From Mycobacterium sp. (GTDB taxonomy: Bacteria; Actinomycetota; Actinomycetes; Mycobacteriales; Mycobacteriaceae), in contig VEQY01000016.1 of assembly GCA_018882965.1 (NCBI GenBank), positions 308 through 64,307 on the forward strand: a DNA stretch of 64,000 nucleotides, read 5' to 3'. Made by a program: the position numbers and the translations under genes. Positions 47,162-51,807 of the stretch are shown here, piece by piece. The notes beneath the pieces were generated by a model. That model had not been told where the DNA came from, searched no databases, and was given only the letters and a program-made list of their open reading frames with translations. Positions within the stretch are counted from its first letter, which is position 1. The number at the start of each line of letters is the position of its first letter.

Positions 47162-47174
47162 GCGTTATGACCCT

Positions 47175-47222
47175 AGACCGGGGTGACTTGAGACCGGGGT
47201 GACTTGAGACCGGGGTGACTTG
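47175..47222. repeat. Perfect 3 x 16-bp tandem repeat (AGACCGGGGTGACTTG)
   Basis: Units at 47175-190, 47191-206 and 47207-222, in a divergent intergenic region. Confidence 0.97.
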
Positions 47223-47257
47223 CACTGTCGGGGTCAGCTGTTAGCTTTCCGGCTCAC

Positions 47258-47554
47258 ATGCCGTCCCACGCCGACCTCGACCAGCTGCTCGCCGCCGCCG
47301 CCGACCTGGACGCGCACGCGGGAAACCTCCTCGCCGCGCACACCGCCGCCGACGCCGCCGCCGAGTGTGCGCTGGGCGGCTGGGCCGGGCGCTCGCGGGT
47401 GGCCATCACCGAGACTGCCGAGCGGTGGGCGGCGCTGACCACCGCCGTGGTGGCCCGCCTCGACGGCCACGCGCAGGGCCTGCGGACCAGCGCGCGCAGC
47501 TATGCGGCCGGCGACGAAGCCGGCGCGCAGGTCCTCGCGCAGATCCGCCGGTGA
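47258..47554 (+). CDS. WXG100 family (ESAT-6-like) type VII secretion protein
   Basis: 98 aa, helical, central WAG motif, C-terminal SARSYAAGDE. Confidence 0.88.
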   Translation: MPSHADLDQLLAAAADLDAHAGNLLAAHTAADAAAECALGGWAGRSRVAITETAERWAALTTAVVARLDGHAQGLRTSARSYAAGDEAGAQVLAQIRR

Positions 47555-49170
47555 CGCTGAGCCCCGCCGAACTCGATCGCTGGGATCCCGAGGCGCTGCA
47601 GGAGGTCGCCGAGGCCGCCCGGGCGCGCGCCGACTGTGCCGCGCAGCTGTCCGCGGCGCTGACCGGTTTGTCCGTCCTGACCGGCTGGACCGGCCCGGCC
47701 GCGCTGGCCGCCCGCACGGCCTTCGACCAGTCCCGCGCGCAGGTGGACGCCCACGCCGCCGAGACGCGGGCGGTGGCCGACGCCGCCGAGCGCGCCGCCG
47801 CCGATCTGCGCGCGATTAAGGCGCGGCTGCGCGAGGTCGAGGAACGCGCCGAGGCCGCCGGGATCCGCATTGATCCCGACACCGCACAGCTGTCCCCGGG
47901 ACCGGGATTCACCGGTGCCGTCCTCCTGCTCACCGAACTGGCCGATCAGCTGAGCGTGATCCTCGCCGACGCCGACGCGGTGGACGCTGAACTGGCCGCG
48001 GCCATCACCGCCGCCGGGGACCCGACCGACTCCGTTACCCGTGACGGCGTCCCGGTCGCCGAGCGCAGTGCGGCCAACATCGCGACGATGACAGCGGACC
48101 TGGACCGGGTGCGCCGTGCCGCAGCCATACACCGGGTCACCGCCTCGGAGGTCGCCGCCGATCCGGGCCGATTCGGCCTGTCCGCCGGCGAGGTCACCCG
48201 CTACCGCAATGCGGTACAGGTCCAGGAAGGCCTGATCTACAACCGCGCCCAGACCGGTGCGGAGACGCTGCTGGTCATCTATGACCCGGTGGCCTTCGGC
48301 GGGCAGGGCCGCGCGGCGATCGCGATCGGCAACCCCGACCGGGCCGCCCGCACCACGGTGATCGTGCCCGGCACCACCCACAGCGTCGCGACCGGGTGGC
48401 TGCGCTCCCCCGGTCCGGCCCTGCTGTACACCGAGACCCGCCGGGCCGACCCGAACCGGACGGGATCGGTGATCGCCTGGATGGGCTACGACGCCCCCGA
48501 CGGTCCGCTCGACGCTCGGATGGCCCAGACCGGGCTGGCCCGCAAGGGCGGGGCGCTGCTGGCCGCCGACCTCAACGCGCTCGCGGCGACCCACCCAGCA
48601 GGCGCCCGTGTGACGGTGGTCGGCCACTCTTACGGGTCGACGACGGTCGCCGACGCCGCCGCCGGCTACGCGATGCGCGCCGACGACGTCGTCCTGCTCG
48701 GCTCGCCGGGCACCGACCTGGCCCGCACGGCGGCGGATTTCCGGTTGCCCGCCGGCGGCCACGTCTATGTGGGTGCCGCCTCCACCGATCCGGTCACCAC
48801 GCTGGCGGGCATTCGCGGGGTCCTGCCCGGCACTGACGTGCCCACCGGGCAGCTGGGGCTGGGCGCCGATCCGGCGGCCGACGGGTTCGGGTCGACCCGC
48901 TTCAAGGCCGAAGCGCCGGGCTGGCGGGTGTGGAGCGATCACGGCCGCTATTTCGAGTCCGGCTCGGAGTCGCTGTTCAGCATGGCCGAGATCGCCGCCG
49001 GGCAGGGCGCGGAGTTGCAGCGCCTCGGCATGACCGCGCCGCACCGCGGTGGGCTGCTCGGCTCACTGGCCGCGCGACTGGGTCTACCGAACTGGAGTGA
49101 CCCTCTGTCCGACCCGGAGCTCTACCGCCCGGCCACCTCGGGGCATCAGCACCGCCCGGGCGGGCGCTGA
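47551..49170 (+). CDS. WXG100-like N-terminal domain fused to a DUF1023-type alpha/beta hydrolase; putative type VII effector
   Basis: GTGA coupling; LDRWDP...GWTGPAA N-terminus; GHSYG nucleophile, LLGSPG, DPV, DHGRY. Confidence 0.82.
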   Translation: MTLSPAELDRWDPEALQEVAEAARARADCAAQLSAALTGLSVLTGWTGPAALAARTAFDQSRAQVDAHAAETRAVADAAERAAADLRAIKARLREVEERAEAAGIRIDPDTAQLSPGPGFTGAVLLLTELADQLSVILADADAVDAELAAAITAAGDPTDSVTRDGVPVAERSAANIATMTADLDRVRRAAAIHRVTASEVAADPGRFGLSAGEVTRYRNAVQVQEGLIYNRAQTGAETLLVIYDPVAFGGQGRAAIAIGNPDRAARTTVIVPGTTHSVATGWLRSPGPALLYTETRRADPNRTGSVIAWMGYDAPDGPLDARMAQTGLARKGGALLAADLNALAATHPAGARVTVVGHSYGSTTVADAAAGYAMRADDVVLLGSPGTDLARTAADFRLPAGGHVYVGAASTDPVTTLAGIRGVLPGTDVPTGQLGLGADPAADGFGSTRFKAEAPGWRVWSDHGRYFESGSESLFSMAEIAAGQGAELQRLGMTAPHRGGLLGSLAARLGLPNWSDPLSDPELYRPATSGHQHRPGGR

Positions 49171-49287
49171 CCCCTGATTTCTTCATCCCGCGTTCAGCGA
49201 ACGTCACGCGGCGGCCATTACCCGGTGAAATACTCGCCACCACCACGGCTGATCGCCGAAACACATTCCCGGGGAAGCGCAGACACC

Positions 49288-51807
<2,520 letters not shown>

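Follow-up and report, generated by a model that had tools for sequence, protein, structure and literature searches.

Can a mycobacterial hydrolase of the kind predicted to leave the cell by type VII (ESX) secretion be carried without the lipoprotein that its relatives encode beside it? The question is raised by a two-gene module in a 64,000-nucleotide stretch of the small genome of an uncultured Mycobacterium sp. (assembly GCA_018882965.1, contig VEQY01000016.1, positions 308 to 64,307 of the forward strand), which we call the window and number from its first letter. The genome, 3.35 Mb in 113 contigs and 95% complete, carries the module on the contig that we label C46, at a site where the G+C content is 69-75%. 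A WXG100 helper gene (47258-47554, plus strand, 98 aa; Pfam WXG100, PF06013) is followed by a hydrolase gene (47551-49170, plus strand, 539 aa), and the two are joined by the sequence GTGA at 47551-47554, a 4-nt overlap between the stop codon of the first gene and the GTG start codon of the second. An earlier reading of the DNA letters alone (the sequence-only reading) had described a 98-aa WAG protein coupled in this way to a 539-aa protein, with only 117 bp between the latter and glgP, no ESX machinery in the window and no adjacent immunity gene. Our analysis bears out this description: both open reading frames (ORFs) are present, the ATG of glgP lies at 49288, no third gene occupies the 117-bp gap (49171-49287), and no ESX core gene was found among the ORFs scanned (about 40.8-54.5 kb of the window), nor any mobile-element gene adjoining the module. 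The sole EccB, EccC and EccD matches of the genome sit on contigs other than C46.

The sequence-only reading had also suggested that homologous loci be inspected for a third gene, and such a gene is present in nearly all of them. Relatives of the hydrolase number more than 1,100 in the protein collection that we searched, nearly all mycobacterial and mostly 520-600 aa long; their source names, Mycobacterium or Mycolicibacterium, place the present genome in Mycobacterium sensu lato. Of 300 genomes sampled across the genus, 157 encode the hydrolase (E <= 1e-60), often in multiple copies and at varied sites. We retrieved 46 homologous mycobacterial loci, and in 42 of the 45 that could be assessed an LppJ-family lipoprotein gene lies directly downstream of the hydrolase gene, at the place taken here by the 117-bp gap. 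The downstream gene in relatives encodes a lipobox-containing protein of 160-215 aa on the same strand, and it often overlaps the hydrolase gene. The LppJ-type family has two invariant cysteines in addition to the lipobox, features that would fit an extracytoplasmic location, and public sources name some of its members "lipoprotein LppJ." No model for these proteins was found in the Pfam and NCBIfam libraries searched, and sequence comparison found no solved relative. The LppJ-type matches P0124-P0243 all bear the precomputed label PF27220, a Pfam family outside the libraries searched. In the more distant actinobacteria Nocardioides, Glycomyces and Actinoplanes, unrelated lipoproteins occupy the same downstream position. 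In M. tuberculosis, Rv2079, which a review lists among predicted esterases and lipases, may perhaps be paired in the same way with Rv2080 (LppJ), as the source names of family members also suggest.

Since LppJ is nearly always present at homologous loci, its absence from the window represents a secondary deletion, and the deletion is not confined to this genome. Nine small-genome mycobacteria, the present one included, share the gene order mmpL-(amine oxidase)-WXG-hydrolase-(LppJ)-glgP. LppJ is kept in five of them (G281, G209, G060, MiE-22 and co334_124) and missing from four (the present genome, G071, G225 and Deming_bin.81). Where LppJ is missing, only 55-150 bp separate the hydrolase stop codon from glgP, compared with 561-605 bp in the five genomes that have it, and tblastn searches with lipoprotein queries gave no match on the contig that carries the module. 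In each of the four genomes, the whole LppJ gene has been deleted. The four do not form a single clade in an unrooted, nine-taxon tree built from glgP and MmpL, on which the distribution of LppJ requires a minimum of three changes of state, and forcing them into one clade costs 256 log-likelihood units (approximately unbiased test, p = 6e-6). Because LppJ is near-universal in the family, these changes of state, at least three in number, are best read as independent losses.

The hydrolase itself was conserved throughout. All 78 family-invariant residues, including W46, G48 and the catalytic triad described below, are retained in nine of nine orthologues. Compared with glgP and MmpL, the hydrolase has branches 3-4 times as long in lineages with and without LppJ alike, such that the rate is no higher after loss. 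We used branch-length ratios and retention of invariant residues instead of the ratio of nonsynonymous to synonymous substitution rates because synonymous sites are saturated at the 50-65% protein identity that separates these proteins. What sets the locus apart is that a gene presumed to confer immunity was lost cleanly and repeatedly while the adjoining enzyme gene stayed fully conserved. The window and its eight syntenic relatives amount to a natural experiment, in which the same hydrolase is found at the same site with and without the lipoprotein while the enzyme remains fully conserved.

The 539-aa protein matches Pfam PF06259 (Abhydrolase_8, formerly DUF1023) over residues 251-419 with 97.9 bits, against a gathering cut-off of 20.5. 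Its nucleophile elbow reads GHSYG, and S360, D413 and H464 are invariant in an alignment of 64 family sequences, as are W46 and G48 near the N-terminus. An AlphaFold2 model of the whole protein, computed with that alignment as input (mean predicted local distance difference test, pLDDT, of 86), places S360, D413 and H464 after strands 5, 7 and 8, respectively, the usual order of an alpha/beta-hydrolase, and the intact Ser-Asp-His hydrolase of DUF1023 type proposed by the sequence-only reading is thereby upheld. The hydrolase core corresponds to 48301-48960 on the plus strand, with the codons for S360 at 48628-48630, D413 at 48787-48789 and H464 at 48940-48942. It is preceded by a helical middle domain (aa 169-235, 48055-48255, plus strand), which is modelled confidently, and followed by a C-terminal tail (aa 473-539 plus the stop codon, 48967-49170, plus strand) with pLDDT values of 63-92 and the invariant residues T495, A496, H498, R499, D521-P-E523 and R526. 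A Foldseek search with the whole model returned carboxylesterases, lipases, cutinases and PETases as the best solved matches (E about 5e-5 to 1e-3), and these neighbors point to a predicted carboxylic-ester hydrolase. Searching solved structures by sequence gave no match for either the hydrolase or the helper.

Relative to its family, the protein is shortened. About 45 residues, comprising a proline-rich linker and a near-invariant WWxSL helix that are present in 61 of 64 family members, are missing at aa ~160-170 (48030-48060). The deletion is shared with P0005 and P0006, which, apart from the 99% identical P0004, are its closest relatives at 74% and 72% identity, respectively; a scan of genome contigs found no hydrolase relative closer than 54%. 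It does not track the loss of LppJ, because G071, G225 and Deming_bin.81 keep the WWxSL helix.

The N-terminal 160 residues (47551-48030, plus strand) appear to form a targeting domain. By eye there is no N-terminal signal peptide, and the protein opens directly with helix 13-38, which leads through a W46-T-G48 turn into a long helix (49-102), a small beta hairpin and a further helix (124 to 154-159). Folded alone, the first 165 residues reach a pLDDT of 91 and a predicted template modelling score of 0.82, and the WTG-bearing helical N-terminus recognized from the letters alone does model as a WXG helical hairpin, with a third helix added. The top Foldseek matches of this domain are PPE4, PPE15 and PPE41 (probability 0.94-1.0, with E values of only about 0.02-0.1), and VIA-align gives Z scores of 10.6 for PPE15 (root-mean-square deviation 2.8 A over 149 residues) and 10.3 for PPE4, and of 9.4-9.9 for the hairpin against EsxEF and EsxA. 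The Pfam PPE model (PF00823) gave no match to the 539-aa protein at E <= 1, and we regard the structural matches as no more than suggestive of kinship with PPE.

The 98-aa protein has a mid-protein W42-A-G44 motif and, near its C-terminus, a YxxxD/E motif (Y82-A-A-G-D86). It scores 41.2 bits against Pfam WXG100 (cut-off 27.3) over residues 6-86, and 34.1 bits against the NCBIfam WXG100_ESAT6 subfamily model TIGR03930, which is below the cut-off of 44.85; profile searches also gave weak PE and EspC matches. A small gene lies upstream of the hydrolase gene in all 15 other loci that we examined and encodes a WXG100- or EspC-like protein in relatives, and when the upstream partners of 16 loci were compared, WxG and [Y/F]xxx[D/E] were retained in most. 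The 98-aa protein is predicted to be a Tap/Lap-like helper in a PE-like role.

The arrangement resembles that of PE/PPE pairs such as PE5-PPE4 and PE25-PPE41, in which a small YxxxD/E partner accompanies a helical WxG domain of ~160 aa, and when the model of the N-terminal domain is laid over PPE4 and PPE15, 140-149 residues align at 2.7-2.8 A. It differs in having three long helices instead of five, in lacking a Pfam PPE match, and in a partner that has its own WXG motif and scores as WXG100. The closest tested parallel is the Eat locus of M. abscessus, in which the helical N-terminus of EatA is bound by a pair of small Tap proteins; EatA is an ESX-4-dependent toxin that the lipoprotein EatI inhibits at 1:1 (Benedict et al., Nat Commun 2026, PMC13444075). 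That study surveyed Tap-linked loci, named alpha/beta hydrolases first among the commonest payloads, and described lipoprotein immunity as typical of toxins that target the envelope (PMC13444075). Eat loci (TapA1/TapA2, EatA, EatI) share with our module a small helical helper encoded upstream and an effector composed of a helical-bundle N-terminus and a C-terminal enzyme, and they share with the usual form of the hydrolase family a downstream lipoprotein. EatA, however, is a GH183 arabinanase with two helpers that uses ESX-4, whereas the present locus encodes a DUF1023 serine hydrolase with one helper and no lipoprotein in a genome where no ESX-4-like system was found, and LppJ-type proteins have no sequence match to any solved chain.

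A homologous hydrolase is found in the polymorphic toxin-immunity (PT-Imm) cassettes of M. abscessus prophages. Genes 8-11 of prophi102-2 (GenBank MW584173) are annotated in the record as encoding a WXG protein, a 539-aa WXG "polymorphic toxin" and a lipoprotein, and the hydrolase domain of that toxin is 34% identical to residues 252-485 of our 539-aa protein. These cassettes likewise place a WXG protein before a WXG toxin, but they are prophage-borne and include an extra large WXG protein, whereas the module studied here is chromosomal, syntenic within its clade and devoid of the lipoprotein gene. The layout of WXG partner, WXG toxin and immunity gene that the sequence-only reading took as established matches both these prophage annotations and the tested Eat locus (PMC13444075). 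A further example is operon 4 of the M. abscessus SigM regulon, Mab_0251-0253, whose products are a helper, a lipoprotein annotated as LppV and an alpha/beta hydrolase bearing WXG and YxxxD/E motifs, with a published model in which the hydrolase projects from a bundle of helices (Canestrari et al. 2026, PMC13491425). The combination of helper, alpha/beta hydrolase and lipoprotein is alike, Mab_0252 being likened here by description and not by Pfam family; that operon is SigM-induced, in contrast to the present one, where no SigM-type promoter was found. Farther afield, TslA-TilA, from the type VII secretion system b (T7SSb) of Staphylococcus aureus, is reported to comprise a type VII-secreted lipase with helical helpers and lipoprotein immunity (PMC10730906). 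These components parallel the usual form of the hydrolase family, but the system belongs to a Firmicute T7SSb, its lipase is N-terminal, such that the domain order is reversed, and its lipase and immunity families are unrelated to those considered here. The module belongs to a published class, which comprises the Eat loci (2026) and the PT-Imm cassettes described in 2021 from prophages of M. abscessus. What our comparison adds to that class is the linkage to LppJ (42 of 45 loci), its recurrent clean loss, and the conservation of the enzyme afterward.

How such a pair might be exported depends on the ESX genes elsewhere in the genome. One set of core genes is present and is split between two contigs, with EccB and EccC on C36 (15.8-21.3 kb) and the remainder on C26 (10-20.3 kb), where PE, PPE (the one true PPE gene of the genome), an esx pair, EspG, a ParA-like gene, EccD, MycP, EccE and EccA are found. 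EccB, EccD and EspG are closest to ESX-5 proteins among solved chains, a set that holds no ESX-2 or ESX-4 proteins. No ESX-4-like system was found in this 95% complete genome, which has one EccB, one EccC and one EccD. Because there is a single ESX set, it must be this system that exports the pair, if the pair is exported. A single EccB is also found in G209, G060 and G225, and three are found in G071. The sole EccB match in G281 (C4:239870-241221) is split in two by an in-frame TGA, which marks either a pseudogene or an assembly error.

Our data favor, with a probability of roughly 0.7, the reading that the module encodes an ESX-exported esterase or lipase effector of the Tap/Eat (PT-Imm) kind whose LppJ partner has been secondarily lost, which supports the effector exported in trans that the sequence-only reading had proposed. 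According to this model, the 98-aa WXG100 protein, with its YxxxD/E motif, would pair with the 539-aa protein at the PPE-like helical domain of the latter's N-terminus, and the pair would present a bipartite WXG and YxxxD/E export signal. Export of the DUF1023 serine esterase/lipase from the cytoplasm would fall to the one ESX system of the genome, whose genes lie on other contigs, and the exported enzyme would act on ester-linked lipids of the envelope or of external origin. The LppJ-type lipoprotein, as the usual co-encoded partner, is a probable extracytoplasmic inhibitor by analogy with EatI. In this lineage the LppJ gene was deleted whole while the enzyme stayed under purifying selection, which argues that the enzyme is functional and can be tolerated even with the cognate lipoprotein gone. 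Possible grounds for this tolerance are that the enzyme is harmless to its producer in this clade, that a distant LppJ paralogue on contig C52 protects the cell, or that the family consists of housekeeping envelope esterases for which LppJ is a dispensable regulator.

Several observations weigh against this reading. By the logic of toxin-immunity pairs, loss of immunity should be harmful, yet the loss recurred. The ESX system of the genome, which is closest to ESX-5 among solved structures, includes EccA, EccE and EspG, a composition unlike that of ESX-4, whereas export of EatA depends on ESX-4. The SigM-type -35 element GGAACCG was found neither upstream of the module nor upstream of most orthologues, and the near-invariant WWxSL helix of the middle domain is missing. 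F-BAR domains score as high as PPE proteins against the model of the N-terminal domain, long helical bundles being weak evidence of kinship. Finally, the literature that we searched contained no functional study of DUF1023 hydrolases or of LppJ, and no DUF1023 hydrolase shown to be secreted, active or toxic.

Other explanations were weighed. The enzyme could be a housekeeping esterase, exported by ESX to remodel the envelope or release nutrients and not to act as a weapon between bacteria, in which case LppJ would serve as a regulator or tether that the cell can do without, and not as an immunity protein. In favor of this, LppJ disappeared at least three times without decay of the enzyme. Within the small-genome clade, moreover, the module is single-copy, vertically inherited and confined to one syntenic site between mmpL and glgP, with no mobile-element genes seen next to it. 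We nevertheless consider this explanation unlikely, because other members of the genus carry several copies of the family at varied sites, some copies lie in prophage cassettes that are annotated as polymorphic toxins, its helper/toxin/lipoprotein layout is that of the tested Eat locus, and a linkage as tight as that to LppJ (42 of 45 loci) is typical of inhibitor pairs. Alternatively, the enzyme could be toxic to its producer, with protection supplied in trans by the LppJ paralogue on C52. This 187-aa protein (C52:45483-46046, minus strand) keeps the conserved motifs of the LppJ family and both cysteines but, at the position expected for the lipobox cysteine, carries a transmembrane anchor, suggesting that it is membrane-anchored and not lipidated. 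Its orthologues are present in G071 and G225, two of the other genomes without LppJ (Deming_bin.81 lay outside the search), as would suit a protective role, but they are also present in G281 and G209, which keep the cognate lipoprotein. As the paralogue is only 27-30% identical to the cognate lipoproteins and forms a separate orthologue group, it did not originate as a substitute for the deleted gene, and we rejected it as a relocated immunity gene. Protection in trans by this protein seems to us improbable.

An explanation of a different kind is that the module is an unexported leftover, in which ESX-4 is gone, the hydrolase stays in the cytoplasm where it is harmless, and the lipoprotein has become useless. 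The one ESX system that was found and its composition, together with the single EccB of G209, G060 and G225, would be in keeping with such a history. Against it, both ORFs are intact, 78 of 78 invariant residues are kept, the rate is not raised, and two relatives of 72-75% identity keep the same shortened form, whereas a useless gene in a reduced genome of 3.35 Mb would be expected to decay. Because both genes are conserved, we regard a non-exported remnant as very unlikely. Also set aside was the idea of a polymorphic family within this genome: the PF06259 hydrolase is single-copy, and neither its N-terminal domain nor the helper has a duplicate elsewhere in the genome. Two further small proteins of the EspC family (C102:14227-14520 and C89:38534-38815) were noted, and these could belong to other ESX substrate modules.

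The first demonstration that mycobacteria secrete antibacterial toxins through type VII systems dates from 2026, and alpha/beta-hydrolase payloads have been reported among the commonest; at mycobacterial Eat-like loci, DUF1023 hydrolases may be the most frequent payload of all. With nine genomes to compare, one can ask if LppJ confers immunity in the first place, and whether a single, non-ESX-4 system is able to export such effectors. Only tentatively, as a reading that we hold less likely than not, do we raise the broader proposal that LppJ-type lipoproteins are not obligatory immunity proteins and that DUF1023 hydrolases are ESX-exported enzymes that can be carried unprotected, with export by an ESX-2/5-like system, and not by ESX-4, in mycobacteria that have a single ESX system. 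If this were true, the hydrolase family would be something other than a classical pair in the toxin-antitoxin style.

The noncoding regions that border the module have features of their own. Upstream, a divergent intergenic region of 96 bp (47162-47257) separates the WXG100 gene from the amine oxidase gene on the minus strand. It contains three perfect tandem copies of the 16-bp unit GACCGGGGTGACTTGA (~47178-47222), the last of which is one base short, and this unit is found nowhere else in the genome. Scans of the locus for sigma-70 consensus promoters and for terminators gave no matches. Downstream, outside the module, the syntenic flank is formed by the alpha-glucan phosphorylase gene glgP (49288-51807, plus strand; Pfam Phosphorylase, 1083 bits). 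The gap before it contains a GGTGAAATACTC-like element at 49222-49235, which recurs in the loci of G071, G225 and Deming_bin.81 and is probably the -10 region of the glgP promoter. The same element overlaps the GTG from which an over-long, 860-aa ORF had been called for glgP.

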